DNA from: Escherichia phage AV124 | Direction: 5' to 3' (one strand) | DNA length: 64,000 nt | Sequence record: OR352954 | In this document: positions 1-36,332 of the stretch, one piece after another | Layout of the letters: the number at the start of each line of letters is the position of its first letter | How positions within the stretch are numbered: the first letter of the stretch is position 1 | Program-made: the position numbers and the translations under genes | Notes under the pieces: model-generated | Databases searched by the model: none | Told to the model about the DNA's origin: nothing | The model's input: only the letters and a program-made list of their open reading frames with translations

Positions 1-2
1 AA

Positions 3-194
3 AAAGATCTTGATCTTATCCATAACGTGGCCTTTTTGATTAGCGAGCTTGAAGAATATGTTGACGAACTAGATCTGAGCATCTATGATGACTACAGTGA
101 AATGAAATCAGCACAAAAAGAAGTGCTCAAATTATTGAAAAATCTCAGACGAAGGAGAGAACATGAAATTCAACGTAGACGATTTGGTCGCTAA
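3..194 (+). CDS. 3' end of an upstream gene (partial), unknown function
   Basis: Open frame from window edge to TAA at 192-194; acidic, helix-like translation; overlaps start of next gene. Confidence 0.3.
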   Translation, partial: KDLDLIHNVAFLISELEEYVDELDLSIYDDYSEMKSAQKEVLKLLKNLRRRREHEIQRRRFGR

Positions 195-1125
195 AAAACT
201 GGTAACCAAAAAGACTTACACCGAAGGCCCGTTCGCGGGTCTTTCTGTGCTGAAGTATAAGAACAATGTGTTCTGGGATAACCTGTGGCATACTGACCCA
301 CGACTGCTTGAGTGCCGTGGCATGGTTGTTGATGCAGAGGACAACGTTGTTATCTGGCCTTTCACGAAGATCTTCAACCGCTTCGAGAATAACACGGATG
401 TCCCTCAGGACCAGTTGGTATGCGTACCTCGTAAAATCAACGGCTTTATGGCAGCAATGAGTATTTACAATGGGGAGGTGATTGTATCTACCACAGGAAC
501 ACTTGATTCTGATTTTGCACAAATGGCAAAAGACAAAATCATTGGCTCTATGCCTGACGGAATGCTTGACTATTTCGTGAAGAACGCTGGACCTTGCACA
601 CTTATCTTTGAGATATGTGATGATAGCGACCCGCACATCGTCGCAGAAGAAGCAGGTGCTTATCTGATCGGTTGTCGTGTTCATTTAAGTGGTGGTATGC
701 TCCCAGAATGGGACCTTGATAAGGTCGCAAATCGTTATGGGTGGAAACGTGCTGGTTGGGACAACATGCTCTTCAGCGATGTTGTTAAGGCCTCTCAAAG
801 TGTTAACCATGAAGGTTTTGTTGTTCGCGATGTTGACACCAATGAGCTATTACTGAAAATCAAGTCTCCACATTACCTTGCGAAGAAATTCCTGATGCGC
901 GGGGGTGATAACAAGTGGGACATGATCTGGGATAACCCGAAAGAGGCCAAGAAGCGTATTGACGAAGAGTATTACGAGTTGCTTGACCATATCCGCGAGT
1001 ATTACTCTAAAGATGACTGGGCTGGGATGGACTCTCAAAAACGTCGTCAGGTTGTTGAAGATTATTTTGCGATTGAAGACCTCTTTGATCGCGATAGTCG
1101 TTTTTACGTTGGAGTTCAAAAATGA
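163..1125 (+). CDS. RNA ligase-like covalent nucleotidyltransferase (Rnl family)
   Basis: AGGAG RBS; motif I KINGF (KxNG), motif IV EGFVV, motif V LLKIK in correct order. Confidence 0.5.
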   Translation: MKFNVDDLVAKKLVTKKTYTEGPFAGLSVLKYKNNVFWDNLWHTDPRLLECRGMVVDAEDNVVIWPFTKIFNRFENNTDVPQDQLVCVPRKINGFMAAMSIYNGEVIVSTTGTLDSDFAQMAKDKIIGSMPDGMLDYFVKNAGPCTLIFEICDDSDPHIVAEEAGAYLIGCRVHLSGGMLPEWDLDKVANRYGWKRAGWDNMLFSDVVKASQSVNHEGFVVRDVDTNELLLKIKSPHYLAKKFLMRGGDNKWDMIWDNPKEAKKRIDEEYYELLDHIREYYSKDDWAGMDSQKRRQVVEDYFAIEDLFDRDSRFYVGVQK

Positions 1126-1466
1126 TTGTCTGGCTTGACGATTTAAGAGACCCTAAAGACTACGGTTATCCTGATGCATTGTGGTTCAAGACCTCTCAGA
1201 AATTTATGGATTTTCTTGATAATCGGTCAAAGTTCTATCGTTATGTCACAGAGTGGCATTTCGACAATGACCTCGGTGAAGATTCAGAAATGGAGGGCTA
1301 TGACTGCCTGTTAGCCTTGGAAGAGAAGCTTGTGTATGGGAAACTTCCTGTGCATGATGCTAAACTCTATGTCCACACGTCTAACCCTTCTGCTGCACAA
1401 AAGTTCATGCTTGCAAAAGAGAGCTTCTCGAAGTATCGTATTACGATCTTGAGAAACAATTACTGA
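1122..1466 (+). CDS. hypothetical protein
   Basis: ORF with ATGA start/stop overlap to upstream gene. Confidence 0.5.
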   Translation: MIVWLDDLRDPKDYGYPDALWFKTSQKFMDFLDNRSKFYRYVTEWHFDNDLGEDSEMEGYDCLLALEEKLVYGKLPVHDAKLYVHTSNPSAAQKFMLAKESFSKYRITILRNNY

Positions 1467-1475
1467 GGAGAAGAG

Positions 1476-1883
1476 ATGGAAAAGACTCTGATTATCCTGC
1501 GCGGTGTGTCTGGTGCTGGTAAATCTACAGTTGCAGATATGCTAGCAGAATGTTTGTGGCCTATCTGTGAAGCAGATAAATTTCACTACACGGAAGATGG
1601 TGTTTACGACTGGAAACCTGAAAATATCCAGGCAGCGCATAAATGGTGCCAAGATCAAGTAAAGGAAATGATGGAATGGAAATTTCGTAAAATCATCTTG
1701 TCTAATACTTCTACCAGTGAAAAAGAACTGAAACCTTATCTTGATCTCGCTGCGGAGAATGGGTATCGTGTTATCAGCCTAGTGGTCGAGAACCGCCACG
1801 GGAATGATTCTATTCACAGTGTTCCGCAGGAAACTCGTGATGCTCAAGAGCGTCGTCTGCGTAACTCATTGAAATTACAGTAG
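1476..1883 (+). CDS. small P-loop kinase (polynucleotide-kinase-like)
   Basis: Walker A GVSGAGKST near N-terminus; RBS GAGGAG. Confidence 0.4.
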   Translation: MEKTLIILRGVSGAGKSTVADMLAECLWPICEADKFHYTEDGVYDWKPENIQAAHKWCQDQVKEMMEWKFRKIILSNTSTSEKELKPYLDLAAENGYRVISLVVENRHGNDSIHSVPQETRDAQERRLRNSLKLQ

Positions 1884-1893
1884 GAGGAAATAA

Positions 1894-2670
1894 TTGAGGC
1901 GTTTAATTGTTATTAGTGGCGCTGGTTTCTCTGCCGAGAGTGGTGTCCGTACATTCCGTACAGATACTGACTCCGGTAAAGCTCTGTGGGATGAATACGA
2001 CCTTGAGGAGGTTTGTAACATACACGCCTTCCGTGGTAACTTCTACCATAAAACGCACATGTTTTATAACAAGCGTCGTGCAGAGTTACCAACGGTACAT
2101 CCGAATGCGGCGCATCTTCGCGTGGCTGAGTGGTACAAACGTTATCCTGGGCAGGTTGTTAACATGACGACTAACGTTGATGACCTTCTGGAACGTGCGG
2201 GTGTCCCTAAAGAAGATACTCTTTACATACATGGTTATCTGAAAGAGATCCTTGTTAAAGATGCTTTCACCAAGAAGATAAAGGTTGTCGATATTGGTTA
2301 CGACCAAATTGATCCTGATGATTATGATTGGTGTAAACCAAACGTAATTTTCTTTGGTGAAAATGCCCCGGCGTATGGACCTATGTATGATACCTTAGAG
2401 TCCTTGACAAACCAAGATCTTGTAATTGTTGTTGGTTGCTCAAACACGGTAATCAACTTCAACTGGGAGTTGTTCCCTGCGGTTGTGCGGGGGACTAAAG
2501 TTGTTGTTGTCAATCCTGCTATTAGGTATGATGAACAAATGATGTATGAGAATGCGGGTGTTCTTGTATATCGTACCGGAGCTGTTGATGCCTTTAATAA
2601 TCCCGGCCTTATCAAGATAGTTGAGAATCACCTTGAAGGTAAGACACCATTGCAAAGCAAGGAGAAATAA
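1894..2670 (+). CDS. Sir2-family NAD-dependent deacylase / ADP-ribosyltransferase-like protein
   Basis: GAGFSAESGVRTFR (Sir2 GAGISxxSGIPxFR), NVDDL, IHG, PNVIFFGE motifs. Confidence 0.65.
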   Translation: MRRLIVISGAGFSAESGVRTFRTDTDSGKALWDEYDLEEVCNIHAFRGNFYHKTHMFYNKRRAELPTVHPNAAHLRVAEWYKRYPGQVVNMTTNVDDLLERAGVPKEDTLYIHGYLKEILVKDAFTKKIKVVDIGYDQIDPDDYDWCKPNVIFFGENAPAYGPMYDTLESLTNQDLVIVVGCSNTVINFNWELFPAVVRGTKVVVVNPAIRYDEQMMYENAGVLVYRTGAVDAFNNPGLIKIVENHLEGKTPLQSKEK

Positions 2671-3983
2671 TGCAACAAGTAAACAGTACACTGTACGCCC
2701 TTAATAAAGATGGTTCTTTCCAGTGTTGGAAGGTGTTTATTGCTGGTAATCAGGTAGTTGTAGAGTTTGGCAAGGTTGGTGGTAAGAAGCAACAAAAGGT
2801 TACCACCTGTGAACCGAAGAACGTTGGACGTTCTAACGAAACCACCGCAGAACAGCAGGCATTGGTTGAGGCGGTTTCCAAATGGGAGAAACAGGTTCGC
2901 CTTGGATATCGTGACGATACAAGCAAGCTTGAGCAGGAAGAGAACTTCTCCCCAATGCTGGCCCATGACGCAATTAAACGTTCAAAATCAATAGTTTATC
3001 CTGCATACGTGCAGCCTAAGCTAGATGGTGTACGTGCTCTGGTTACTCTTGATGCAGATGGCTTCCCACAATTCAATAGCCGTGGTAACAAACTGTATCC
3101 TGTACCGCTTGATTCTGAGTTGTCTGAACAGGTTAAATCCCTTTCTGAGCATTCCGGGTTTGACAAATTCGATGGGGAGCTGTACATTCATGGTCTGAGT
3201 CTGCAAAAGATTGTCGCTCTTGCTAAGAAGTGGCGTACACCAGAGCAGATCGAAGAAGAGATTGAAAAGGATTATCAGTCTGACCTGAAGCGCCATCAGA
3301 AAGCTATTGACAATGGGGAAGACAGTTGGAAAGATTTCGATGGTGATGTTTACTCTGTCGCAATCGAACCAGTTAAAGATGTTGATCGTTATGGCGGCTA
3401 TTCAAGCCTTGACCTAGAGTACCATATCTTCGACATTCCGTGTTCAAATAAACCTTGGATGATTAACGATGGGATTTCAGACTATACAGATAAGGAGTGT
3501 CGATACAAAGACCTTATGGACACTGACCACTTCACCTCTGTTATTAAAGCAGATAAAATAAATGTGGTCCAAGGGAATGTCTTTGACACTGAGGATGAGG
3601 TTAAGCAATCAATCGGACATTTTATGCAGCAAGGCTTTGAGGGTGCTATCATCCGAAATTTCAAAGGTGTCTATGAATTTGGTCAGAGATCTTCTGATCT
3701 CCAGAAATGGAAACTTTTCCAAGACGGTGAGGCTAAAGTCCTTGATTCTGTGGAAGATAAGAACGGTGAGGGTGTATTACTCTGCGAAGAGAAAGATGGT
3801 ACACGTTTCAACTGTAAAATGAAGGGAACCCACGCAGAGAGATCTCAGGAACGAATGCTCCTGCTGGTGGGTAAGTTTATTAACTTCACGTTCCAGGCTA
3901 GAACTGATGATGGTGTTCCTCAGTTTGCCATAGGCCAAAGCGTTCGTGAACTCGATACATTAACATGGGAACCTACTTATTAG
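2670..3983 (+). CDS. ATP-dependent DNA ligase
   Basis: Motif I KLDGVRAL, motif III FDGELY, motif IV EGAIIRN, motif V LQKWKLF. Confidence 0.8.
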   Translation: MQQVNSTLYALNKDGSFQCWKVFIAGNQVVVEFGKVGGKKQQKVTTCEPKNVGRSNETTAEQQALVEAVSKWEKQVRLGYRDDTSKLEQEENFSPMLAHDAIKRSKSIVYPAYVQPKLDGVRALVTLDADGFPQFNSRGNKLYPVPLDSELSEQVKSLSEHSGFDKFDGELYIHGLSLQKIVALAKKWRTPEQIEEEIEKDYQSDLKRHQKAIDNGEDSWKDFDGDVYSVAIEPVKDVDRYGGYSSLDLEYHIFDIPCSNKPWMINDGISDYTDKECRYKDLMDTDHFTSVIKADKINVVQGNVFDTEDEVKQSIGHFMQQGFEGAIIRNFKGVYEFGQRSSDLQKWKLFQDGEAKVLDSVEDKNGEGVLLCEEKDGTRFNCKMKGTHAERSQERMLLLVGKFINFTFQARTDDGVPQFAIGQSVRELDTLTWEPTY

Positions 3984-4038
3984 CGTATATAATGTCGGTA
4001 TAAATGATTCTTCTACACCAGTCTACTCAAATGGAAAC

Positions 4039-4574
4039 ATGGATGTCTATTACTCAAGATGGAAAGACATCCTTAAAAGATGCTATTCTGAAAGCTTTCA
4101 TGCAAACAACCCTTCCTACATTGGATGCTCTGTTTGTGAAGAATGGAAAACATTTTCTATCTTTAAGGCTTGGTTAGTAGGTTCTGGATTTGATGGAACA
4201 CAGGTTATTGATAAAGACCTTTTGTTCAGGGGAACAAATTGTACAGTCCAGAAACTTGTGTTTTGATTGATTCAGAACTTAACTCTTTTTTAGCGATTGG
4301 CGGTAGAGGTTCTCACTTGCCCCACGGGGTTGGTTTGCAAAGCGGTAAATGTGTAAAACCTTATACAGCAAAGATTAAGGACTCTGTTAAGACAGAGTAT
4401 ATTGGAAGCTATGAGACAGCAATGGATGCTCATAAGGCTTGGCAAAATAGAAAATATCAGGCAGCATGTAATCTTTCTTTAAGGTATGATGACCCAATTA
4501 GAGCATACATTGTAAACGCAGCAAATAGGATTTTAGAAGATATAGAAAACAATAGACAGACAAAGGAGATATAA
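4039..4574 (+). pseudogene. frameshifted AP2-domain homing-endonuclease-like gene (paralog of 21765..22349)
   Basis: ORFs 4039..4266 and 4239..4574 align end-to-end with the intact paralog; single-nt frame change near 4236-4245. Confidence 0.5.
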
Positions 4575-5035
4575 TGGGATTTTATCGTAAAAAACCTGTA
4601 GAGGTTGAAGCACATAAGTTTGACGGATCGTCAACCAGCGCAGGGCAGATCCATAATTGGATGGAAACTGGTGTGTGGAAGGATTCCGAAATCCACACTC
4701 GTGATTGTGGTCGTACTGTAGAGATAAAAACCCCAGAGGGGGTGGTTGTAGCCTCTGCTGGGGATTATGTAATTAAAGGGGTGGCTGGAGAATTCTATCC
4801 TTGCAAATCAGAAATTTTCCATGCAACATATGACCCGCTGGAAGACACTGATCGGGAACCTGGGAACTACCCAGCTAAAGCAATCCGTAAGGGTGATGAG
4901 ATCATGTTTTGCGGAAAGGTTTATACCGTAACGAATACTGGTGCGATGGGGGAGGATGTTATCCTGACTCTCGGCGATGGTTCCCAAATCCCTGTGCGCC
5001 CGGATACTCAAATTATCGTAACAAAGGCACAGTAA
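4574..5035 (+). CDS. hypothetical protein
   Basis: ORF, ATGA overlap with upstream ORF, RBS AAGGAG. Confidence 0.5.
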   Translation: MGFYRKKPVEVEAHKFDGSSTSAGQIHNWMETGVWKDSEIHTRDCGRTVEIKTPEGVVVASAGDYVIKGVAGEFYPCKSEIFHATYDPLEDTDREPGNYPAKAIRKGDEIMFCGKVYTVTNTGAMGEDVILTLGDGSQIPVRPDTQIIVTKAQ

Positions 5036-5036
5036 A

Positions 5037-5387
5037 ATGATCTGGTATTGGCTGGCGCTACTAGGCGCATCATTTGTAACAGGAGGCGGCATTTATACCG
5101 CTTACAGATTCCGAAAAGATAAGCTGGATGATTTCTTTGACTGGGTTGCTGGAAAGGTTAAACGTCTGCTGATCATCTGGGTATTTGTTATGGGCCTTGT
5201 TACGCTGGCCCTTACTGTCCCATTATGGAATACTATGACTTGTCAGTTCGACGGCTGGGCCGCGAATACAGAGACCAGTTATTCATGGTACAAATCAACC
5301 TGCCTGTATAAAAGCAAGACAGGGGCATGGCTACCTTTAGGTATCAGTCGTGATCAACCGCAAGGAGATGGTGATGCATCAAATTAA
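5037..5387 (+). CDS. membrane protein
   Basis: Two hydrophobic helices in translation. Confidence 0.45.
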   Translation: MIWYWLALLGASFVTGGGIYTAYRFRKDKLDDFFDWVAGKVKRLLIIWVFVMGLVTLALTVPLWNTMTCQFDGWAANTETSYSWYKSTCLYKSKTGAWLPLGISRDQPQGDGDASN

Positions 5388-5628
5388 AGAAAATACTGTA
5401 GATTTTGAAGCGCATATCTACGATTCTGCGATGAACGACAACTACAGATGGTCAATTCGTCCAGATCCTGATCTGCCAGGTTCAGTTAACCTTTCTTACA
5501 ATGAGTTAGCTCATTATGACAACCGTTCTCGCCAAGGTTATGAACAGCGGGGTATGGTAGGTTTCGATAAAGAAACTTGGGAAAAAATTAAATACGCCAT
5601 CGATGGTGTTTTTGAAAAAACAATTTAG
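5374..5628 (+). CDS. hypothetical protein
   Basis: ORF; AAGGAG RBS before internal ATG. Confidence 0.4.
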   Translation: MHQIKENTVDFEAHIYDSAMNDNYRWSIRPDPDLPGSVNLSYNELAHYDNRSRQGYEQRGMVGFDKETWEKIKYAIDGVFEKTI

Positions 5629-5636
5629 GAGATTTA

Positions 5637-6314
5637 ATGAAAGAAGCTTATGATACTCTGAATGCTATGCTGCGCCCAACCTCTCTTGTTAAGTATGCGA
5701 AACATGTTGTAGATTGGAATTCTATCGCAGCCTCTGCAAAGGGTGAATTTACCCCATTGGAAAAGCAGTGGGAGTTTGTAGGAGAGGAGTTACAAGAAAC
5801 CGTTACAGCATTAATCGAAAATGACCGTAAGGAAGTTGTTGATGGAGCGTGTGATTTGTTTGTTGTGGCGTCGTATGCTTATTGGTTGAGTAATAACTAT
5901 TCGCTATCCTCAGATAAATATTTAACTTATAATCCTGACCTTAAGTTTTCTCCTGGTAAAGCTTTGGATGCTTTTGCGAATGATGACTATGAGGGGATGC
6001 TTAAATTGAGCACAGCTTTGTTGTTTGGTCTTGATATGCAATTGCATAAGAACATGCATAGCGTTCTGGAATCTAATGATTCTAAATATCCAACACTTAG
6101 TGAAATTCAGTCTTTGCATAAAGACCTTGACTTGGCAAAAGCCCTTGAGGCAGAATGCACCTGTATCGAACAGCGTAATGGTGGACGCTATGAAGGTGTT
6201 CATTTCTCCATTGTTGATGAGAATATGAAAGAAGAGCCACGTGTCGTATTCTTCGACAAAGGCGGTAAAATCATGAAGCCAGGGACTTTCAAAAAACCAA
6301 ACATTATTGTTTGA
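5637..6314 (+). CDS. hypothetical protein, possibly MazG-like NTP pyrophosphohydrolase
   Basis: EFVGEELQE ... DGACDLFVV resembles MazG EExxE/D motifs; weak. Confidence 0.3.
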   Translation: MKEAYDTLNAMLRPTSLVKYAKHVVDWNSIAASAKGEFTPLEKQWEFVGEELQETVTALIENDRKEVVDGACDLFVVASYAYWLSNNYSLSSDKYLTYNPDLKFSPGKALDAFANDDYEGMLKLSTALLFGLDMQLHKNMHSVLESNDSKYPTLSEIQSLHKDLDLAKALEAECTCIEQRNGGRYEGVHFSIVDENMKEEPRVVFFDKGGKIMKPGTFKKPNIIV

Positions 6315-6339
6315 CAATCGTATCGGGGTCTGTATAATG
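6312..6339 (+). promoter_or_regulatory. sigma70-type promoter (TTGACA-N16-TATAAT)
   Basis: Perfect consensus hexamers. Confidence 0.55.
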
Positions 6340-6366
6340 ACCCCATCAAGACAAAAGGAGAAAGAA

Positions 6367-6591
6367 GTGGAAGAAAATATTGATTATTCTGAAATTGTTG
6401 CCTTGGCTAAACGCCTTAAAATGACCATCATGAATCGCGGGGCATCTTCCCGTCATGTTATCCGCTTCACAATGAAGCGTCGTTGGGGCGGCGTAAAGAA
6501 ATACGCTTATGAATGCACACTCGGAACTCTGGTAGCTCATGTAAACCAGATCGAGAGAATGGGCGGAAAAATTGTCGGAATTGACAATTAA
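6367..6591 (+). CDS. hypothetical protein (GTG start)
   Basis: AAGGAG RBS then GTG downstream of consensus promoter; track ORF 6307 start lies upstream of promoter. Confidence 0.4.
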   Translation: MEENIDYSEIVALAKRLKMTIMNRGASSRHVIRFTMKRRWGGVKKYAYECTLGTLVAHVNQIERMGGKIVGIDN

Positions 6592-6594
6592 AGT

Positions 6595-6622
6595 TTGACA
6601 AATAAAACTGAACGGTTATACT
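6595..6622 (+). promoter_or_regulatory. sigma70-type promoter (TTGACA-N16-TATACT)
   Basis: Consensus -35 and near-consensus -10, followed by AAAGGAG RBS and ATG 6654. Confidence 0.5.
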
Positions 6623-6653
6623 TACCACACTAAACCAAACAAAGGAGCAATAT

Positions 6654-7013
6654 ATGCCACGTATGCCAAAAATCAAAATCGAACTGATCACCTCTCTGCC
6701 ATCTGACCCGGTTCAGCGTAAGCGCCTGAAAGATAGCGTAACTGAAGTGGTTGATCTCCAGCGTCAAATCGCTGATCTGAAAGACCAGATCAAAGATATT
6801 CGCTCTGTGGAGAAAGAAACGCATAATATCTCTCCAAAATTCTTCAATAGTCTCGTGAAGCGAGAGTATGATGTTCGTTTCGAAGCAGAAAAGAAAACCG
6901 CTGCATTAGAGGCCGAAAAAGAAGTCTTCACCGAGGCAGATATTCTTTTTGGTCGTGGAACACCCAATGTTGCACAGACTGAAGCAGATGATGGTGCTGA
7001 GGACACTGAATAA
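6654..7013 (+). CDS. hypothetical protein
   Basis: ORF with strong RBS. Confidence 0.5.
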   Translation: MPRMPKIKIELITSLPSDPVQRKRLKDSVTEVVDLQRQIADLKDQIKDIRSVEKETHNISPKFFNSLVKREYDVRFEAEKKTAALEAEKEVFTEADILFGRGTPNVAQTEADDGAEDTE

Positions 7014-7213
7014 TGAAATACTACCTAAATGGTGTTGGCCTCTTTGTCTTCATCTGTGTCGTATTCGGGTTTGGTGTTCCAACTCTGGTTTCTGCCAAAG
7101 ATACAATCAGTGTTATTGGCGGGTTTGCCTTAGTCTTCACTGCCCCGGTTGTCGTATGGTACTGGTTGCGTAAGGTCTTCATTCCGAAGACAAGCGCTGA
7201 AGGAGATCGATAA
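7013..7213 (+). CDS. small membrane protein
   Basis: Two TM-like segments; ATGA overlap. Confidence 0.4.
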   Translation: MKYYLNGVGLFVFICVVFGFGVPTLVSAKDTISVIGGFALVFTAPVVVWYWLRKVFIPKTSAEGDR

Positions 7214-7377
7214 TGTTGCTAAATCTGAAGGCGGCAACTTGGGAAAAGTTGCAGCACTTGGCAAAGTCCAAAGGTAAGTCTGCGGCATCTTATGTTGCAA
7301 AAATCGTAGATGACCACGTTGATGAAAACGTAAAGACTGAGTATAAAATCAAAGAGGAGAAACAAACTGATGCTTAA
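7213..7377 (+). CDS. small protein, possibly ribbon-helix-helix-like
   Basis: 54-aa ORF not in track; KAATWEKLQHLAKSKGKSAASYVAKIV pattern; stop overlaps SPFH gene start. Confidence 0.3.
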   Translation: MLLNLKAATWEKLQHLAKSKGKSAASYVAKIVDDHVDENVKTEYKIKEEKQTDA

Positions 7378-8260
7378 GAATATCAAACGCGTAGTATTTG
7401 CTGGACTGATCGCTCTGGGTGCAATTGGTCTGACTGGTTGTGAACGTGCAACTGTTCCGGCGGGTTATGTTGGTGTTAAGGTTGACCTGTATGGTGATGA
7501 GAAAGGCGTTCAGCAGCAAGAAGTCGGCGTTGGTAAATATTGGTTGACCTGGAACGAAGAGATCTATCAGTTCCCGACGTTTAACCAGTTGAACAACTAC
7601 GAACAACCGTTCAACTTCCAGACCAAGGATTCCATGACGGTTACTGCAAAGATCGGTGTTGAGTATTACGTTGACCGCTCCAAGGTTACCAAGATCTTCC
7701 AGACCTACCGTAAAGGCGTCCAAGAGATTACAGATGTCAACATCCGTCAGAACATCTCTGATGCGCTGATCAAAGAAGCTGGTACGATGGATATTGGTAC
7801 ACTTGCTGGTGATGGTAAATCTCAGCTTCTAGACCGAGTGACCAAGACACTGAAGCAGAAACTTGACCCGGTAGGTATCGTTATTGTAAAACTATCTTAC
7901 ACTGATGACCTTGGTTATCCTCCTCAGGTAACTGCGTCCATCAATGCTAAGATCGAAGCTACTCAGAAAGCTCTGCTGCGTGAAAACGAAATCCAGCAGA
8001 CTAAAGCTGAAGCTCAGAAACAAATTGAAGCAGCTCGCGGTGAAGCAGAATCCCAGCGACTTCAAGCTCAGGGCCAGGCCGATGCTAAAGTAGCTCTGGC
8101 AAAAGGTGAAGCAGAATCCATCCAACTGCGTGGTGATGCTCTCCGTAAGAACCCTGAAATCATGCAACTGGAAGCGATCAACAAGTGGGACGGTAAAACC
8201 CCGACCATTATGGGTGGCAACGGTGCAGTACCTTTCGTAAATCTGCCAGCAGGTAAGTAA
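7370..8260 (+). CDS. SPFH/band-7 (prohibitin/HflKC-like) lipoprotein
   Basis: Signal peptide with lipobox LTGC; SPFH core then Ala/Gln/Glu-rich coiled coil. Confidence 0.7.
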   Translation: MLKNIKRVVFAGLIALGAIGLTGCERATVPAGYVGVKVDLYGDEKGVQQQEVGVGKYWLTWNEEIYQFPTFNQLNNYEQPFNFQTKDSMTVTAKIGVEYYVDRSKVTKIFQTYRKGVQEITDVNIRQNISDALIKEAGTMDIGTLAGDGKSQLLDRVTKTLKQKLDPVGIVIVKLSYTDDLGYPPQVTASINAKIEATQKALLRENEIQQTKAEAQKQIEAARGEAESQRLQAQGQADAKVALAKGEAESIQLRGDALRKNPEIMQLEAINKWDGKTPTIMGGNGAVPFVNLPAGK

Positions 8261-8263
8261 AGG

Positions 8264-8292
8264 TTGACAAAAGGCCCGGTGATTAGTATCAT
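8264..8292 (+). promoter_or_regulatory. sigma70-type promoter (TTGACA-N17-TATCAT)
   Basis: Hexamers upstream of AAAGGAG RBS and ATG 8323. Confidence 0.45.
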
Positions 8293-8322
8293 CGGGTATC
8301 TACTTACAAAAGGAGATACACA

Positions 8323-8517
8323 ATGATCCGCACAAAAATTCTTATCGCAGCATTGCTGCTATCTTCTCCGGTATTCGCGACTGTAAACACTCTTGATTTG
8401 GTTGATGAATACACCGACGGAAGTTCTAAAGTCTGCATCTACAGCGACGGTAATCGCACAGAATCTGTTCTGAAAGAAGGTGCTGGTTCTTGTCCAAGTA
8501 AGAAAACATTTCATTGA
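8323..8517 (+). CDS. small secreted protein
   Basis: N-terminal signal peptide MIRTKILIAALLLSSPVFA. Confidence 0.45.
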   Translation: MIRTKILIAALLLSSPVFATVNTLDLVDEYTDGSSKVCIYSDGNRTESVLKEGAGSCPSKKTFH

Positions 8518-8521
8518 GGCA

Positions 8522-9031
8522 ATGATGCGAGTAACTGATAAATACGTATTCTTCTTCACATACCGGGATATGTTCAGTAATCACTACCGCCAAGTTATTC
8601 CTATTCGTTGTGGTGGTTACGAGTTTTTTACTGTAGAACATTACATGATGTTCCAGAAGGCAATGCTCTTCGATGACAAAGAAATTGCTTCCCGCATCGC
8701 TACGGTTGATAACCCGAATGAGGCCAAAGCTCTTGGTCGTCAGGTAAAAGGTTTCGACAACAGCGTCTGGGAAGAGAATAGAATGGATATTGTGACTTCA
8801 GGCCTTGTATTGAAAATGAAGGCCAACAGGTCTGTTCTGGAAGCGGCGCTTGGGCATCGGGATGCTGGTCGTAAGTTTGTGGAAGCCTCCCCTTATGATG
8901 CCATCTGGGGTGTTAAATTAAACGAATATGACACACGTATCGATGACCCAACCAACTGGCGGGGTTTGAATCTTCTCGGTGAGTGCTGGGAACGAGCTAT
9001 TGATATTGTTGTTGCTGCAACGTGGAGGTGA
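8522..9031 (+). CDS. NADAR / YbiA-family protein (predicted ADP-ribose N-glycosidase fold)
   Basis: FSNH, TVEHYMMFQKAMLF, PNEAKALGR, DAIWG motifs colinear with YbiA family. Confidence 0.6.
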   Translation: MMRVTDKYVFFFTYRDMFSNHYRQVIPIRCGGYEFFTVEHYMMFQKAMLFDDKEIASRIATVDNPNEAKALGRQVKGFDNSVWEENRMDIVTSGLVLKMKANRSVLEAALGHRDAGRKFVEASPYDAIWGVKLNEYDTRIDDPTNWRGLNLLGECWERAIDIVVAATWR

Positions 9032-9470
9032 TTTGAAATTAGAGATTGAACTAGTTCCAAAGACCGCGTGGTTTACTAATCTCCGATCTCGTCTCCCCAA
9101 AGCCCAGTGGGATGTTGTCAGAAAGAAGTGTTATGAGAAGGCCAATTATCGATGTGAAATCTGCGGGGGTAAAGGAACAAAACACCCTGTTGAATGCCAT
9201 GAGAAGTGGAATTTCGGAGACGGTAAGATAACTCTGATAGGTCTAATCGCGCTATGTCCTTCCTGTCATGAAGTCAAGCATATTGGTTTGGCAGGGATCC
9301 GTGGGCGGGGTGAAATTGCCCTTCGTCACTTTATGAGAGTGAATGAAGTGAGTCGCCATGTGGCAGAGAAATATGTTAAGGAAGGGTTTGATTTGTATCA
9401 TGAACGAAGCAAGCGCGAAAAGTGGGAATTGGATGTCCGGTATTTGGACGAGTATTTGAGTAAAGATTGA
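8979..9470 (+). CDS. HNH endonuclease
   Basis: CEICGG ... HPVECHEKWNF ... CPSCHEVKH zinc-finger HNH motif; start uncertain. Confidence 0.6.
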   Translation: MSAGNELLILLLLQRGGDLKLEIELVPKTAWFTNLRSRLPKAQWDVVRKKCYEKANYRCEICGGKGTKHPVECHEKWNFGDGKITLIGLIALCPSCHEVKHIGLAGIRGRGEIALRHFMRVNEVSRHVAEKYVKEGFDLYHERSKREKWELDVRYLDEYLSKD

Positions 9471-10012
9471 GAGGGCTAGTGGGTGATCGTGAGATTGAAG
9501 ATTTAAGGAGATGCCTTACATACGACCAATCAACCGGAATGTTAAGATGGAACAGTCGTCCAAGAGAGGATTTCAAATTCGATTGGACGTTCGAAAATTG
9601 GAATTCGAAGTGGGCTGGTAAGGAAGTAGATAGCATCGGAAATACAGGTTATTATCGCTTCTCTCTTAACTACAAGAGATATCTTGCACACAGAGCTATT
9701 ATAGCCATGACATACGGTTATTGGCCTTCTGTAGTAGATCACCTAGATGGTGACAAGTTGAACAATAGACTTAGTAATCTAAGGGCAACCACCCAGGCTG
9801 TCAACATGATGAATAAGTCAGGCTACAAAAACAATACCTCTGGTGTTACAGGAGTACACAAGAGAAAGGATAATGGTAAATATTCTGCATCGGTAGTCTT
9901 AAATGGCAAGAGAAAACATCTTGGCACTTTTGACACTATTGAAGAAGCCATTCGTGTTAGAGAAGAAGAACTTTCCAAGAGGGGGTTCTCCTCCTCTCAT
10001 GGAAGTTTCTGA
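9467..10012 (+). CDS. HNH homing endonuclease with AP2 domain
   Basis: HR...VDHLDGDKLNNRLSNLR HNH_3 motif then AP2-like GVTGVHKRKDNGKYSASV...LGTFDTIEEA. Confidence 0.65.
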   Translation: MRGLVGDREIEDLRRCLTYDQSTGMLRWNSRPREDFKFDWTFENWNSKWAGKEVDSIGNTGYYRFSLNYKRYLAHRAIIAMTYGYWPSVVDHLDGDKLNNRLSNLRATTQAVNMMNKSGYKNNTSGVTGVHKRKDNGKYSASVVLNGKRKHLGTFDTIEEAIRVREEELSKRGFSSSHGSF

Positions 10013-10026
10013 AAATAGGGGGAATA

Positions 10027-11148
10027 TTGGGTTATCCATACGATGAAAATTGGAAGAGTAAAGTCACGAAAGACTGCGTATTAGCTTTGGATCTCGACCA
10101 GACATGCTTTGTATCAGCCGCTGGTGCTGAAAAGAGGACGATAAAAGCAACACATATCAAAACAGGCAGGACTAAAATCTTCCGCAACAGAACAGAATTC
10201 TGGGGTTCCACCAAAAGGGTGGTGGGTGGGTGGTTGAAAGACCAGAACGCCAATATGGAGGTGAAGGCAAAAGCTGAAGGCAGGGAGTTTACTCCTTGGG
10301 GTCGTGATGATTTCCTCATCGAGGACATTCAAACCCCTGAGCCTGTGGAGAACTGCCTTCATATCCTGAAGACAAAGATCAATGCTATCTTTGAACACCT
10401 TGAGATGGAAAGCAATACAGGGATGGGTGTACTTGGTGGTGAGGGTAACTTCCGCCTTATGCTCCCAGCTCCAGAACGTTATAAGGGTAACCGTGAGGAT
10501 ACATTACGCCCACTCCTTCTTCAGGAAACAAGGGATTATGTTACCCGGAAGTATAACGCTAAGGTGATTAATGGTGTTGAGGCAGATGACTATCTGTCTG
10601 TTCTTGCCTATATGGGGTGGGAGAATTACCAGAAGACCGGGAAGTTCAACTACATCGTGGCATCGTTTGATAAAGACCAGAAAGGAAACCCTGGGCTTAT
10701 CTTCGACACCATGCGCGATTCAGAAGAGAAGACATGGAAGCACCCGATTCCTATGTTGATCGATGATTCGATGGGAGAAATCTGGATGGAAGGTAACAAG
10801 GTCAAGGGATGGGGACGTAAGTTCTTCGGTTACCAGATGCTTTGCGGGGACAGCTCAGATAACATCAAGCCATACCAGTGTTTTGATATTGCTGGACGTT
10901 TCGGTGATACGGCGGCATTCAACCTGATCGGACACCTTCAGGATGAGAAATCCATGTGGCAAGCGATCATTAACCAGTATAAAACCTGGTTCCCGAACGG
11001 TGTTGAGTTTACTTCGTGGGACGGCACACAACGGAAAATGAGTGCAGGCCAGTGGGCATCTATCATCTTCCAGATGGTCTACATGAAACGTTCTGCAAAT
11101 GATAAGACAACCCTTTCAACAGAGCTGCGTCGTGTGGGGGTTATATGA
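10027..11148 (+). CDS. FEN-type 5'-3' exonuclease / flap endonuclease
   Basis: VLALDLDQ, GVEADDYLSVLA, CGDSSDNIKPY motifs of 5' nuclease family. Confidence 0.55.
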   Translation: MGYPYDENWKSKVTKDCVLALDLDQTCFVSAAGAEKRTIKATHIKTGRTKIFRNRTEFWGSTKRVVGGWLKDQNANMEVKAKAEGREFTPWGRDDFLIEDIQTPEPVENCLHILKTKINAIFEHLEMESNTGMGVLGGEGNFRLMLPAPERYKGNREDTLRPLLLQETRDYVTRKYNAKVINGVEADDYLSVLAYMGWENYQKTGKFNYIVASFDKDQKGNPGLIFDTMRDSEEKTWKHPIPMLIDDSMGEIWMEGNKVKGWGRKFFGYQMLCGDSSDNIKPYQCFDIAGRFGDTAAFNLIGHLQDEKSMWQAIINQYKTWFPNGVEFTSWDGTQRKMSAGQWASIIFQMVYMKRSANDKTTLSTELRRVGVI

Positions 11149-11164
11149 TAACCGGAGGAGGGAT

Positions 11165-11488
11165 ATGATGATCGATAACTTAATCATGCAGGCAGTTATG
11201 AGGGATGCTGAGGCGCTGGCTGTTCCCAGCGTCAAGGGTAAATTCTTAGTCGCCACAGGATTGTGGCGCATGGTTGAGTCTGGTGATGATTGCTATGTGA
11301 TTTTCACGGATGACTATACGGATCCGAATGTTGCATTCACCGTGTTGCTTCTGGATGATTGCGAGCTGGTAGAAGGTGAGAAGCTGTTGATGTTAACAAG
11401 CGTTTTGCTAGACACTCAAGAATTCTCCCTGGTTGTGTTCAAGGACCAAAATGACTCGGAGGCAACCGATGAAGCTGATGTCGGTTGA
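11165..11488 (+). CDS. hypothetical protein
   Basis: GGAGGAG RBS before ATG 11165. Confidence 0.4.
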   Translation: MMIDNLIMQAVMRDAEALAVPSVKGKFLVATGLWRMVESGDDCYVIFTDDYTDPNVAFTVLLLDDCELVEGEKLLMLTSVLLDTQEFSLVVFKDQNDSEATDEADVG

Positions 11489-12083
11489 TCAGAGTCTTAG
11501 CCACTGTGCTGTTGTCATATTCGATGATGGGGTGCCTGTTTACCGGGAAATGATCAGAACAGGCTCAAACAATAGCAAGAGCAAGAAAAACAAGGATGTT
11601 ATTTATTTTGACAATGTTCATGAACAGATTAGATTCATTGTTGGAAGAATCCTTACTCTGGCTGAAGAACATCGGATTGACAAATATGTTATGGAGGCCC
11701 TTAGCCTTAGTTCTATAGGCAGCGCCACTCGGGATTTGGCTGGTCTGTTCTACTGTATTGTGTACGGGTTGTATCAGTCAGCAATTTTGGGGTATCAAGC
11801 GATTCATACTGTAGCCCCTACCTCTGTGAAGGCTTATGCCAGAGCACTTTTGCCTGAATCAGAACGCACAGTTGTTAAAGAAAAGGTTGACAAAAAGACC
11901 GGGAAAAAGGTATACTCCACAGGTCAGGTTAAAATGGAAAAATCGCACATGGTGAGAGCCGTAGATTGTGATTTCCCAGGTTGGCTTGACGGAATGACTC
12001 TTGCCGCCGGAAAGGCTGACTACGCAGATGCATATTTGATAGGGAAGAAGTTCTTGGAGGATATATCCGTAGGAAAAGAATAA
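11469..12083 (+). CDS. hypothetical protein
   Basis: ORF with GGAGG RBS; function not recognisable. Confidence 0.4.
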   Translation: MKLMSVDQSLSHCAVVIFDDGVPVYREMIRTGSNNSKSKKNKDVIYFDNVHEQIRFIVGRILTLAEEHRIDKYVMEALSLSSIGSATRDLAGLFYCIVYGLYQSAILGYQAIHTVAPTSVKAYARALLPESERTVVKEKVDKKTGKKVYSTGQVKMEKSHMVRAVDCDFPGWLDGMTLAAGKADYADAYLIGKKFLEDISVGKE

Positions 12084-31442: not shown

Positions 31443-31944
31443 ATGAGATCCATTGTTCCGGTTAAGGGCTTGGAGGGATTATACTCTGTTAACTTTTTCG
31501 GAGCTGTGTATTCTCATCGGTCTGAAAAATTTCTGAAACCAGAAAGAATGCCAGACGGATACCTACGTTATACACTAATTGATGAGAGGGGCAGAAAAAT
31601 ACGTAGGCAGGCCCATATCTTTACCTTGGAGTCCTACCCTGGAGGTATTTATCAAGAAGAGGTCAACCATAAGGACCACGTCAGGGATAACAATTGGATT
31701 GGAAACTTAGAGTGGGTGTAATGTAGAGCACGGGAAATCAAGAAGCTTCATAATTACATTTCCCGATGGCAGAAAAGAGAAGGTATTCAACCTCAGTAAG
31801 TTTTGCAGGGACAATGATTTACACTTGGGGGCAATGCATGAAATGGCAACGGGAAGGATTAGAGAAGGAAGATCCCTAAGAACTCACCACAAAGGTTATT
31901 TCTGTGAATATGACCAGGACTATACAGAATCAGGAGAATGGTAA
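31443..31944 (+). pseudogene. disrupted HNH homing endonuclease (NUMOD4/HNH N-terminal ORF plus out-of-frame C-terminal segment)
   Basis: 31443..31721 encodes GLEGLYSVN...VNHKDHVRDNNWIGNLEWV then stop; a +1 frame stays open ~73 codons to 31944. Confidence 0.45.
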
Positions 31945-33200
31945 TGCAAGATAAGAAGATCTATTTGGTTGGTGGAGCCGTAAGGGACTCCTTGCTCGGT
32001 AGGCCCGTGCATGACAAGGACTATGTTTGTGTCGGGTACACACACGAAGAGATGATCGCCGCCGGATTTACACAGGTTGGTGCAAATTTTGCAGTATACC
32101 TTCATCCTGAAACCAAAGAAGAATACGCACTGGCCCGTACTGAGCGCAAAACGGGTGAGGGCCATACTGGCTTTGAGACCTTCTTCAGCCCGGATGTAAC
32201 TCTGGAAGAGGATTTATCGCGTCGTGACCTGACGATCAATGCGATGGCTAAAGACATGGAAACAGGATTTATCATTGATCCGTTCAACGGTATGCATGAC
32301 CTGTGCAACAGGACTCTTCGTCATACCACTTCGGCATTCATGGATGACCCATTACGTATCCTGCGACTTTTCCGATTCAAGGCCCAGCTGGGTGATGGTT
32401 GGACTGTCGATCATGAGACATATAGTCTCGCTTACAACAACCGTTACCGCCTGGCAGAAATTAGCCCAGAACGCAAATGGAAGGAGATGGAGAAAGCTCT
32501 TAATTCCAACAACTTTATGAGTTATGCTTACGAAATGGCCGTGCTTGGTGAACTCCCAGAGCTAGATGCCCTTCATGGTGTAGAGCAACCACCTGAGCAT
32601 CATCCAGAGGGTGATGCCTTCATCCACACCCTGATGTGCCTGGAGCAGGCAGACAAAACCTTTTGCTCTCCTCAGGTGAAATTTGCGGTGCTGTGCCATG
32701 ACTTTGGAAAGGCGATCACTTTCCGTAAGTACGGTAATCTCCTCGGTCATGAAGAAGCTGGTCTTGATCCTGTGCGGACGCTGTGCAGTCGAATTCGAGT
32801 TCCTAACGAATTCAGGGATATTGCACTGTACGTGACAGAGCACCATACTCGTGTGCATTGCATTTTGGGCCGTGGGAATAATAAAGGAATCAAGCCACGT
32901 TCCATGATGAAGCTTTTCGAAGCCGCAGGTAACGTGGCTAGTCAGAAGACACAGGACAAGGTGTTTGCCTTAGCAGACGCTTGTTTCTGCGATGCCCGTG
33001 GTCGTGGTGCCACGCACGCAGATAAGGAATACCCGCAAGGAAAAATTCTCCTTGATGCTTTCGATGCGGTTGTAAATACGGACAGCAAGGCGGTATCTTC
33101 AGCAATGCTGGAGAAAGGAAAAAGCGGCAAGGAGATCGGTGAGGCGATCCGTGTTGCACGTATTGATGCAATTCGTAATGTCCTTAAGGAGAGATCATGA
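31938..33200 (+). CDS. CCA tRNA nucleotidyltransferase (Pol-beta head + HD domain)
   Basis: N-terminal GGAVRDSLLGRPVHDKDYV motif; C-terminal HD-type region. Confidence 0.75.
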   Translation: MVMQDKKIYLVGGAVRDSLLGRPVHDKDYVCVGYTHEEMIAAGFTQVGANFAVYLHPETKEEYALARTERKTGEGHTGFETFFSPDVTLEEDLSRRDLTINAMAKDMETGFIIDPFNGMHDLCNRTLRHTTSAFMDDPLRILRLFRFKAQLGDGWTVDHETYSLAYNNRYRLAEISPERKWKEMEKALNSNNFMSYAYEMAVLGELPELDALHGVEQPPEHHPEGDAFIHTLMCLEQADKTFCSPQVKFAVLCHDFGKAITFRKYGNLLGHEEAGLDPVRTLCSRIRVPNEFRDIALYVTEHHTRVHCILGRGNNKGIKPRSMMKLFEAAGNVASQKTQDKVFALADACFCDARGRGATHADKEYPQGKILLDAFDAVVNTDSKAVSSAMLEKGKSGKEIGEAIRVARIDAIRNVLKERS

Positions 33201-34173: not shown

Positions 34174-34385
34174 TTTTTGCCATTATCTATATTATTCTCA
34201 GTATTATCACAGCGGGAGCTGTAATTTATTACACCCTTCGTGAACAAGATTTGCTGAGGGTAGAAGATATTTTAACTTCCCTGATCTGCGGTGTTTTTTG
34301 GTGGTTAACTATTTTATGCGGCGCCCGTGCTTGGATAGGAAAGCATCTTAATAGCAGGACAGTTGTGTATAGGAGAAAGAAATAA
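34170..34385 (+). CDS. small membrane protein
   Basis: Two TM-like helices; ATGA overlap. Confidence 0.4.
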   Translation: MIFAIIYIILSIITAGAVIYYTLREQDLLRVEDILTSLICGVFWWLTILCGARAWIGKHLNSRTVVYRRKK

Positions 34386-34876
34386 TGAAGACACGCATGT
34401 ATTGCGTAGTAAATCAGTATATTGCAGGTATCCATGCCGGAATTCAGTCTGCTCATGCCATGACTGAAGTGTTCTTAGACTACCCACAGCGTAGGAACAA
34501 GGCCAGCAACCTGTTGTGGGACTGGGCGGATAGCGATAAGACGATGATCGTCCTTAATGGTGGCTACCAGTCAAACTTACAGGACCTTTGTTCAAAATTG
34601 CGGTTTCTCAGTGGCACTTACCCGTGGGCATTTTTCTGTGAAGAACACGATGCTCTAAACGGGGCAATGACAGCAGTTGCTGTTGTACTGCCGGAGTATA
34701 TGTACAACCCACAATACATGGAAGTTACGGATCTCGTATATCGACCAGGCCAACTCGTAGGGCCGCAGATTGCTAACCAGTACCGGGACGAGCTGGGCAA
34801 TGTGGTCCACAACTACACCCAAACAGAGAAAGACTTGATCACCATGATCAAATCCTTCCGCCTGAAAGGCGAATAA
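34385..34876 (+). CDS. hypothetical protein
   Basis: ORF. Confidence 0.45.
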   Translation: MKTRMYCVVNQYIAGIHAGIQSAHAMTEVFLDYPQRRNKASNLLWDWADSDKTMIVLNGGYQSNLQDLCSKLRFLSGTYPWAFFCEEHDALNGAMTAVAVVLPEYMYNPQYMEVTDLVYRPGQLVGPQIANQYRDELGNVVHNYTQTEKDLITMIKSFRLKGE

Positions 34877-34877
34877 T

Positions 34878-35252
34878 ATGAATGATGTTCGTGGTGATAC
34901 TCTCAAGGTCGGCGACTCAGTTTATATTTATTTCGGGTACAATGAACTAAAACCTGGTATTGTAAAGCAGATCCGTGGTAAGCTGGCTAAGGTGCTGGTT
35001 GATGCATACCCTAACCGGGAAGACGACGAGAGTCGTTATTCCCTATCTAAGTGGAAACCTGGTGTCTGCATGATCAAGGCTGATGAGCCTACAGGTTGGT
35101 ATCCCGACGAGGTTATCCTACTCTTAGAAGAGATCCGCAGGTTGCGGGATGAGGCCCCTAGTAACAAAGAAGGTTTACCGACTAAACAACTATGCCAATA
35201 CCTCTTGAATTATTGGGATAGAAAACGACCATGTAACCTAGTCTGTTCATAA
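34878..35252 (+). CDS. hypothetical protein
   Basis: ORF. Confidence 0.45.
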   Translation: MNDVRGDTLKVGDSVYIYFGYNELKPGIVKQIRGKLAKVLVDAYPNREDDESRYSLSKWKPGVCMIKADEPTGWYPDEVILLLEEIRRLRDEAPSNKEGLPTKQLCQYLLNYWDRKRPCNLVCS

Positions 35253-35261
35253 GGAGAGATA

Positions 35262-36332
35262 ATGGAAAAGTTTGAAGTGATGCGATGCTATTCCGGTAGC
35301 CTCGCTTATGGCACAAATCTTCCAACTAGTGATGTGGATATTCGGGGTCTGTTCTGCGCCCCACCTAAATTCATCCGCACGCCGTTCTTTAACATCAAAG
35401 AGCAAACCTTGGAAGATGAAGAGGATGGGAAGATTTATGAGTTGACAAACTTCATGAGATTGTTTTCAGAGATGAACCCCAACATCATTGAACTGATGTT
35501 TGTCGATGACAAAGACATTTTACAAACCTCTGAAGTTTATGAATATCTTCGCACAATGGCCCCGGCACTGCTGACCAGTAAGGTAGCGTTCTCCTTCTCT
35601 GGGTATGCGATGGCACAGCTTAAACGTATTCGCGGTCATGATAAGTGGATCAGCAATCCGCAGCCTGAAGAAAAGCCTACGCAAAAAGAGTTCTTCCGAT
35701 TAGTTCACAACTATAGTGAGAACGAATTCCTTGCCGGGGCAATTAAGCACGATCGCTTCATGGAAGCAATGAACAATCTCAACGATATGTGTATCCTTGT
35801 ACCTTATGGGAACGATATCTATGGGGTGATGGAAAACTTCAGTAGCTCAGGGATGTTCAATGCTAACGGTTCAATTCGCCATGTTGACTATCAGCAACTT
35901 TCTGACTCTGACAAGCGGAGAAAACCTGTCTTTATTGTCAAATATTTGGCAGAGGAACACAAACAGGCCAAAGAGAAGCATCGTAACTATTGGACATGGA
36001 AACAGAACCGAAATGAAGTTCGTCACCAGCTCGAAGTTGATTTTGGTTATGACACGAAACATGCGATGCACCTTGTGCGCCTGATGCGTATGGCAGAAGA
36101 GATTCTTTCTGATGGGAAGGTCCTAGTGAAGCGTCCTGATGCTCAGGAACTTCTCGACATCCGGGCAGGTAAGTGGACTCTTGACGAACTGCTCTCTTGG
36201 GCTGATGAGAAGGACCGTTATATTCGTGAGGATCTGTACAAAAAGACACAGCTTCCTAAAATGGCGGATCTTGACCTGTTTGCTAGGGTTCTCATGACGG
36301 CTCAGGATATGTGTTGGAGTAAACTGGTATGA
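35262..36332 (+). CDS. Pol-beta-superfamily nucleotidyltransferase (RlaP-like)
   Basis: N-terminal YSGSLAYGTNLPTSDVDIRGLF (GS...D.D motif). Confidence 0.45.
   Translation: MEKFEVMRCYSGSLAYGTNLPTSDVDIRGLFCAPPKFIRTPFFNIKEQTLEDEEDGKIYELTNFMRLFSEMNPNIIELMFVDDKDILQTSEVYEYLRTMAPALLTSKVAFSFSGYAMAQLKRIRGHDKWISNPQPEEKPTQKEFFRLVHNYSENEFLAGAIKHDRFMEAMNNLNDMCILVPYGNDIYGVMENFSSSGMFNANGSIRHVDYQQLSDSDKRRKPVFIVKYLAEEHKQAKEKHRNYWTWKQNRNEVRHQLEVDFGYDTKHAMHLVRLMRMAEEILSDGKVLVKRPDAQELLDIRAGKWTLDELLSWADEKDRYIREDLYKKTQLPKMADLDLFARVLMTAQDMCWSKLV

Follow-up and report, generated by a model that had tools for sequence, protein, structure and literature searches.

The stretch of Escherichia phage AV124 analysed here (sequence record OR352954; 64,000 nucleotides, hereafter the window) probably carries, at positions 163..2670, the central part of a phage RNA repair cassette of the heal-and-seal type. 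Four genes, all on the + strand, lie in this interval: an Rnl1-type ATP-dependent RNA ligase (163..1125; 320 amino acids), a cREC (cyclic-phosphate processing receiver-like) protein (1122..1466; 114 amino acids), a stand-alone polynucleotide 5'-kinase-like P-loop protein (1476..1883; 135 amino acids) and a sirtuin of the Sir2 family (1894..2670; 258 amino acids). The four proteins can be assigned to families, their catalytic residues are conserved, and their genes are tightly packed and co-occur in related phages. We infer the function of the cassette from homology and synteny only.

The protein encoded at 163..1125 is, judged from its sequence, securely an Rnl1-type adenylyltransferase. It covers the whole PF09511 RNA_lig_T4_1 profile (1–227 of 227; E = 1.3e-12; 48.5 bits against a cutoff of 28.3) and matches phrog_562 (4e-66). 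Conservation was scored, and a family profile built, from 25 homologues with 50–79% identity. Motif I (K91-I-N93-G94), motif III (F149-E150), motif IV (E217-G218) and motif V (K232-I-K234) are invariant in all of them, as are the Rnl1-type N-terminal residues R52 and K69, and F71 is at least 90% conserved. The lysine nucleophile is K91, with the motif I sequence K-I-N-G encoded by nucleotides 433–444, and it aligns with the T4 Rnl1 nucleophile K99. Residues R52, K69, F71, G94, E217, G218, K232 and K234 likewise align with T4 R54, K75, F77, G102, E227, G228, K240 and K242, respectively. T4 R54 and K75 are essential and contact the ATP gamma-phosphate (PMC6379707).

In the PDB, the ligase family profile matched T4 RNA ligase 1 only (2c5u and 9do4; E = 2e-10), with no DNA ligase among its matches. 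A single-sequence phmmer search of the same protein against the PDB returned nothing, and the family profile was needed to obtain a match. A 'DNA ligase-like' reading of 163..1125 was rejected on the basis of the Pfam match and of the profile matching T4 Rnl1 alone. The initial annotation of the window, made from the sequence alone, had recognized an RNA ligase here from motifs I, IV and V and had regarded it as distinct from the gene at 2670..3983, while allowing that the protein might group with DNA ligases on a profile search. Both of its claims stand, and the protein encoded at 2670..3983 (+ strand) is a separate ATP-dependent DNA ligase (PF01068 and PF14743; phrog_114, 3e-80).

The same annotation had placed a small P-loop kinase two genes downstream of the RNA ligase, and such a protein is indeed encoded at 1476..1883. 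Its sequence shows 100% identity to a protein of Escherichia phage AV124. It matches PF13671 AAA_33 (2.3e-9), phrog_2071 (3e-56) and phrog_505 'polynucleotide kinase' (8e-8). Its Walker A motif spans G10–S17 (G10-VSGAG-K16-S17), and the residues invariant across 28 homologues include G13, G15, K16 and D34. Searched against the PDB, the kinase profile has its best match in Pnkp1 of the Pnkp1/Rnl/Hen1 repair complex (4xrp, 3e-6), followed by T4 Pnk (2e-4 for 1ly1, and 5e-4) and CthPnk (4gp7, 4.5e-4). The AlphaFold model (predicted local distance difference test score, pLDDT, 89.3) gives Foldseek template modelling (TM) scores of 0.72–0.75 to T4 Pnk and CthPnk versus 0.48–0.64 to gluconokinase, APS kinase and PFK-2, which are modest margins. 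The closest solved relatives of the kinase, by profile and by modelled fold, are therefore RNA-repair polynucleotide kinases (i.e. Pnkp1, T4 Pnk and CthPnk) and not members of another NTPase family, as the initial annotation had allowed. A weak P-loop match to gluconokinase, obtained by single-sequence phmmer against the PDB, was superseded by the profile and fold searches. The putative catalytic base is D34, which in the alignment to T4 Pnk pairs with the catalytic D35 (D38 in the Cth enzyme). A conserved R107-H108 pair lies in the lid region and is aligned with T4 R122, not with the lid arginine R126.

The gene between ligase and kinase encodes the cREC protein, which matches the PF20274 cREC_REC profile ('cyclic-phosphate processing receiver domain') with an E-value of 1.7e-17, above the gathering score. 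Its structure model has a receiver fold and is very confident (pLDDT 94.9); a Foldseek search of this model against the PDB returned no match. D6 and D7 at the end of strand 1, D48 at the end of strand 3, and N88 are invariant, and T86 at the end of strand 4 and R111 in strand 5 are at least 90% conserved. D6, D7, D48, T86 and R111 are recognizable as a receiver-type phosphoryl-transfer constellation. Because this receiver-type acidic quintet is kept, phospho-aspartate or HAD-like chemistry is plausible. The HAD 3'-phosphatase of T4 Pnkp is described as working via a phospho-aspartate intermediate (PMC3592404), and the active-site logic of cREC may parallel that of such HAD phosphatases. The domain was named, and its activity predicted, in earlier comparative-genomics work (PMC7824862), the predicted activity being hydrolysis of 2',3'-cyclic phosphate or of 1''-2'' cyclic ADP-ribose phosphate (PMC7824862, PMC9503650). 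The cREC protein of the window is a candidate RNA 2',3'-cyclic-phosphate or 3'-end-healing enzyme.

The sirtuin is identified by PF02146 (3.3e-22) and phrog_2162 (2e-110), and among solved structures E. coli CobB (1s5p, 5e-19) is its nearest relative. The NAD motif (GAGxS) and the HG of the catalytic site (I-H-G-Y) are present, but the protein has three cysteines in total and hence no CxxC...CxxC zinc module. The sirtuin of this type of cassette has been proposed to remove RNA 2'-phosphates in an NAD-dependent, KptA/Tpt1-like manner (section 3.7.3 of PMC9503650).

A further component lies just beyond the window. Logan contig L049, which is 99.59% identical to window positions 1..11882 and reaches 8.5 kb upstream of position 1, encodes a calcineurin-like metallophosphoesterase ∼350 bp upstream of window position 1 (contig positions 7587..8180; PF00149, 28 bits with a cutoff of 21.5). 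In this contig it heads the same gene string as the RNA ligase, and it falls outside the window because of where the boundary lies. Metallophosphoesterases are reported for CthPnkp as proven end-healers with 2',3'-cyclic phosphodiesterase and 3'-phosphatase activities (PMC2190708), and it is plausible that the upstream protein is a 3'-end-healing enzyme of the cassette.

Taken as a repair cassette, these proteins would act as follows. A host ribotoxin, e.g. an anticodon nuclease, would cut tRNA or other RNA and leave 2',3'-cyclic-phosphate and 5'-OH ends. The 135-amino-acid P-loop kinase would phosphorylate the 5'-OH with D34 as the general base, and the cyclic phosphate would be opened and removed by cREC and/or the upstream metallophosphoesterase. 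The Rnl1-type ligase, adenylylated at K91, would pass AMP to the 5'-phosphate and seal the break, and the sirtuin may use NAD+ to take off a residual 2'-phosphate, as Tpt1 does. Host tRNAs and the ∼22 tRNAs of the phage itself are likely RNA targets. Predicted elements of this scheme are the substrates, the sequence of steps, what cREC and the sirtuin do, and the biological target and trigger. A bolder version, which we put forward tentatively and consider rather doubtful, is that (i) cREC represents a new class of RNA 3'-end-healing enzymes that opens or removes 2',3'-cyclic phosphate via a phospho-aspartate at D48 and replaces the HAD phosphatase of T4 Pnkp, and (ii) the zinc-less sirtuin is a Tpt1-like NAD+-dependent RNA 2'-phosphotransferase. 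If true, cREC and the sirtuin would provide previously undemonstrated RNA-repair chemistry, although the Aravind group has already put the idea itself forward from in silico work.

Gene packing and gene order also bear on the cassette. The successive junctions from RNA ligase through cREC, kinase and sirtuin to DNA ligase are a 4-nucleotide overlap, a 9-nucleotide gap, a 10-nucleotide gap and a 1-nucleotide overlap. The first of these, in which the start of cREC overlaps the ligase stop codon, suggests coupled expression of the two genes. A promoter and terminator scan of positions 1..7000 gave counts that are not above those of shuffled sequence, with no clear break within 163..6300. This is compatible with, and proves nothing about, a single transcription unit across 163..6300.

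By sequence comparison, the window is assigned to a Mydovirus (Vequintavirinae) genome. Positions 1..4000 matched 199 phage records; the best match is Klebsiella phage VLCpiM5b (Vequintavirinae, Mydovirus; 95.9% identity), and next come Proteus phage Mydo (92%), Raoultella phage Ro1 and Klebsiella phage KB57, all within ∼90–92% identity. For synteny we used 44 viral contigs that encode cREC relatives. The order ligase–cREC–kinase–Sir2–DNA ligase–MazG is kept in contigs L005–L010. In L011 the kinase is inverted and lies upstream of ligase–cREC–Sir2–MazG, and the linkage is kept. The DNA ligase is syntenic in L005–L011, and MazG in both L005–L011 and L013–L016. In L014 and L015, cREC lies 1 kb upstream of an adjacent ligase–kinase pair, and no sirtuin was detected nearby. 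Survival of the linkage through such rearrangement argues for functional coupling.

The cassette is already known as a published prediction for rV5/Mydo-type phages, and GenBank entries of related phages annotate its genes. Iyer, Burroughs, Anantharaman and Aravind (Viruses 2022; PMC9503650, section 3.7.3) described the same neighbourhood in Escherichia phage V5 and Proteus phage Mydo, i.e. a T4-like tRNA ligase, cREC, a nucleotide kinase, a sirtuin, MazG and, in some instances, a phosphoesterase of the calcineurin-like kind. They predicted that it serves NAD-linked RNA repair by cleaning up RNA termini that bear a 2',3'-cyclic phosphate. The gene content of our cassette is identical to that of their type 2 sirtuin-centred neighbourhood: all components are present in the window or in L049, and the phage lineage is the same. 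Nothing substantive differs, except that the window cuts off the phosphoesterase and that its DNA ligase gene is followed by an HNH-like insert with a frameshift.

Three other systems provide further comparisons. With T4 Pnkp and Rnl1, which counter the anticodon nuclease PrrC, the cassette shares an Rnl1-type adenylyltransferase, alike in motifs I, III, IV and V and in the N-terminal residues that contact ATP, and a P-loop 5'-kinase with a catalytic aspartate. By contrast, the kinase is a single-domain protein without the fused DxDxT HAD 3'-phosphatase of T4 Pnkp, in whose place cREC and the upstream metallophosphoesterase are found. The likeness to tRNA-repair cassettes that the initial annotation had drawn holds in outline, i.e. 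for the ligase and kinase families, but not for the T4 arrangement, because cREC lies between the two genes and a sirtuin downstream, both of which had been overlooked. Among bacterial Pnkp/Hen1 systems (Clostridium thermocellum Pnkp and Capnocytophaga Pnkp1-Rnl-Hen1), Pnkp1 is the best PDB profile match of the kinase, as noted above. Unlike these systems, the cassette has separate genes instead of one polypeptide, and cREC and a sirtuin instead of a Hen1 2'-O-methyltransferase, which was not seen in the cassette. Trl1/AtRNL with Tpt1/KptA heals and seals in a similar way: its parts are an Rnl1-related adenylyltransferase, a P-loop kinase, a cyclic-phosphate opener and an NAD-consuming partner (PMC6379707, PMC9503650). 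The fungal and plant proteins differ in that the opener is a 2H enzyme and not a putative receiver-fold cyclic phosphodiesterase, and the partner is the Tpt1 ADP-ribosyltransferase and not a putative sirtuin.

Several observations weigh against an RNA repair cassette. T4 Rnl1 K119 is essential, and its position is taken in the ligase family by T111, a threonine that is invariant in the 25 homologues. After motif V, the ligase has 86 residues compared with ∼132 in T4 Rnl1, so that its C-terminal module is ∼45 amino acids shorter, and the profile alignment to T4 Rnl1 stops at T4 residue 269, leaving the T4 C-terminal domain unaligned. The C-terminal domains define RNA ligase clades, and that of T4 confers tRNA specificity (anticodon loop; PMC6379707). 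Because this domain did not align, tRNA specificity of the ligase is unsupported. In the kinase, the polynucleotide-binding R38 of T4 aligns with H37, which is at least 90% conserved, i.e. arginine is replaced by histidine. Neither a HAD phosphatase of the T4 type in the cassette nor an anticodon nuclease target was found. Our literature search on RNA repair by cREC or phage sirtuins yielded comparative-genomics predictions only and no experimental work.

The wider distribution of cREC is a further such point. Specialized ligase and kinase hidden Markov models gave no match at 32 distant cREC loci, even at relaxed thresholds. In a Pfam scan of ten open reading frames from eight distant cREC loci, one was cREC itself, one was an RNA ligase and one was a helicase, and the other seven had no Pfam match. 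A recognizable RNA-repair neighbour was thus found at one of these eight loci only (L019), where a cREC with 33% identity lies 0.65 kb from an RNA ligase of a different family (PF09414). Our own locus sampling therefore gives the association of cREC with RNA repair no more than weak support, and it is chiefly from the published survey that the claim derives.

Finally, the genome is rich in NAD and ADP-ribose enzymes, so that small molecules could instead be the substrates of cREC, the sirtuin and the kinase. An NADAR domain protein (8525..9031, + strand; PF08719, E = 9e-35) adds to this NAD/ADP-ribose theme together with the sirtuin and MazG. NAMPT and PRPP synthetase are encoded just upstream of the window in L049, and NMNAT, PnuC and a Macro domain protein occur elsewhere in VLCpiM5b. 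The cluster could accordingly be mainly an NAD+/ADP-ribose counter-defence module, in which cREC, the kinase, the sirtuin, MazG and NADAR process ADP-ribose, cyclic ADP-ribose or NAD derivatives produced by host NADase defences, and the RNA ligase is only a neighbour. The density of these NAD-related genes fits such a module, as does the proposal that cREC acts on 1''-2'' cyclic ADP-ribose phosphate (PMC9503650), and the kinase profile also matches nicotinamide riboside kinase weakly (2qg6, E = 0.0075). However, in profile (3e-6 to 5e-4) and in fold alike the kinase is nearer to polynucleotide kinases, ligase and kinase are still adjacent in L014 and L015 where no sirtuin was detected nearby, and the ligase–cREC overlap suggests that the ligase is expressed together with its neighbour. 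We consider this explanation unlikely.

The tRNA genes of the phage invite another explanation. The initial annotation had found no tRNA-like sequence, and for the window this is correct: ARAGORN predicted no tRNAs, Rfam gave no hit at the gathering threshold, and the T-loop pattern GGTTCRANTCC had no match where 0.27 would be expected. For the genome it is not. In L049, tRNA-Met(CAU) lies ∼6.7 kb and tRNA-Lys(CUU) 7.3–7.4 kb upstream of window position 1. VLCpiM5b has 22 annotated tRNA genes (23 by ARAGORN) at record positions 76985–84169, i.e. 6.6–13.8 kb upstream of the point corresponding to window base 1. With tRNA genes upstream in both records, a phage without tRNAs was rejected. The absence of tRNAs is a window-edge artefact due to where the window begins, and not a property of the genome.

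The window also encodes enzymes related to tRNA. At 31938..33200 (+ strand), where the initial annotation had placed a CCA tRNA nucleotidyltransferase, we find a 420-amino-acid CCA-adding or tRNA 3'-end repair nucleotidyltransferase with a C-terminal HD domain (PF01743, 1.4e-20, and PF01966; phrog_2244, 4e-147). Its score with NF008137 'multifunctional CCA addition/repair protein' is 419.8 bits, slightly below the 451-bit cutoff. An RlaP-family pol-beta nucleotidyltransferase ('RNA repair pathway' family) is encoded 2 kb downstream of it (35262..36332, + strand; PF10127, 8.7e-15; phrog_388, 4.5e-79). The cassette might then serve routine maturation or quality control of the ∼22 phage tRNAs, together with the CCA enzyme, RlaP and a PTH2-like protein, and not damage inflicted by defences. 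The large upstream tRNA cluster, the two nucleotidyltransferases and a weak PTH2-like match in the window agree with this. On the other hand, bacterial tRNA maturation normally proceeds without 2',3'-cyclic-phosphate and 5'-OH breaks that require a ligase, and the T4 precedent for Rnl1 with Pnk is counter-defence (PMC6379707). Routine tRNA maturation is, in our view, improbable.

Least probable of all is that the genes work separately: the kinase and the DNA ligase would heal 5'-OH DNA nicks, and the main role of the Rnl1-like protein would be to attach tail fibres, like gp63. In favour of this, T4 Pnk phosphorylates both DNA and RNA, the DNA ligase gene stands in the same tightly packed gene string, and the PHROG name of the 163..1125 protein, like the GenBank annotation of its relatives, reads 'RNA ligase and tail fiber protein attachment catalyst'. 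Against it, this annotation is inherited from T4 gp63, the cassette lies among early nucleotide-metabolism genes ∼35 kb from the tail-fibre genes in VLCpiM5b, the catalytic residues of the ligase are all invariant, and cREC is inserted between ligase and kinase.

As an RNA repair cassette, the locus has some wider relevance. Phages of the rV5/Mydo type are common phage-therapy candidates for Klebsiella, E. coli and Salmonella, and they carry a full RNA-damage toolkit (i.e. ligase, kinase, phosphoesterases and the CCA/HD enzyme) beside a large tRNA set. This toolkit probably helps them to evade tRNA-cleaving defences. Given that the prediction itself is published, what the locus still offers is a compact and well-conserved system in which to test the predicted chemistry of cREC and phage sirtuins.

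Downstream of the sirtuin, the part of the DNA ligase (2670..3983) in an RNA function is unproven. Its gene is followed by an HNH/homing-endonuclease-like gene (phrog_953) in two + strand fragments, 4039..4266 and 4239..4574, which match profile positions 224–286 and 287–400, respectively. This gene is intact in L049 (178 amino acids), and a single 1-nucleotide indel splits the window copy; either the split copy is a pseudogene or the indel is a sequencing error. The whole gene is absent at the same site in VLCpiM5b and resembles a mobile insertion behind the DNA ligase gene.

The MazG-like protein is an all-alpha NTP pyrophosphohydrolase encoded at 5637..6314 (+ strand; PF01503 PRA-PH, 4.6e-5, above cutoff; phrog_671, 2e-23), and MazG is listed as a component of the sirtuin/RNA-repair neighbourhood (PMC9503650). 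Right after its gene, a sigma-70 consensus site matching at 12 of 12 positions (TTGACA-16-TATAAT) is found at 6311..6338 and an 11-of-12 site at 6595..6622, both on the + strand. These sigma-70-like sites may mark the starts of the next transcription units. Further along, an SPFH/Band 7 protein (7370..8260, + strand; PF01145, 1.5e-21), named 'lipoprotein' in a relative, is unusual cargo among early phage genes.

The RlaP gene belongs to a second RNA/tRNA-related cluster at 34385..36332 (+ strand), 1–3 kb downstream of the CCA enzyme. This cluster also encodes a DUF7205 protein and a 163-amino-acid 'hydrolase' with a sub-threshold match to PTH2 peptidyl-tRNA hydrolase (E = 0.007). In VLCpiM5b (contig L002, 12686..14747), just past the equivalent of the 3' end of the window, a second RNA ligase (PF09414; motif KLHGTNG) adjoins a Macro-domain protein (PF01661) that is annotated as 'phosphatase'. 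With this PF09414 ligase besides the Rnl1-type ligase, the phage lineage carries two RNA ligases, like T4. Near the end of the window, an HD-domain metal-dependent phosphohydrolase is encoded at 60142..60651 (+ strand; phrog_990, 1.5e-67; HD_4 below cutoff). The gene before it is divergent: it is annotated as 'thymidylate kinase', is 73% identical to the copy in a relative and has no Pfam match.

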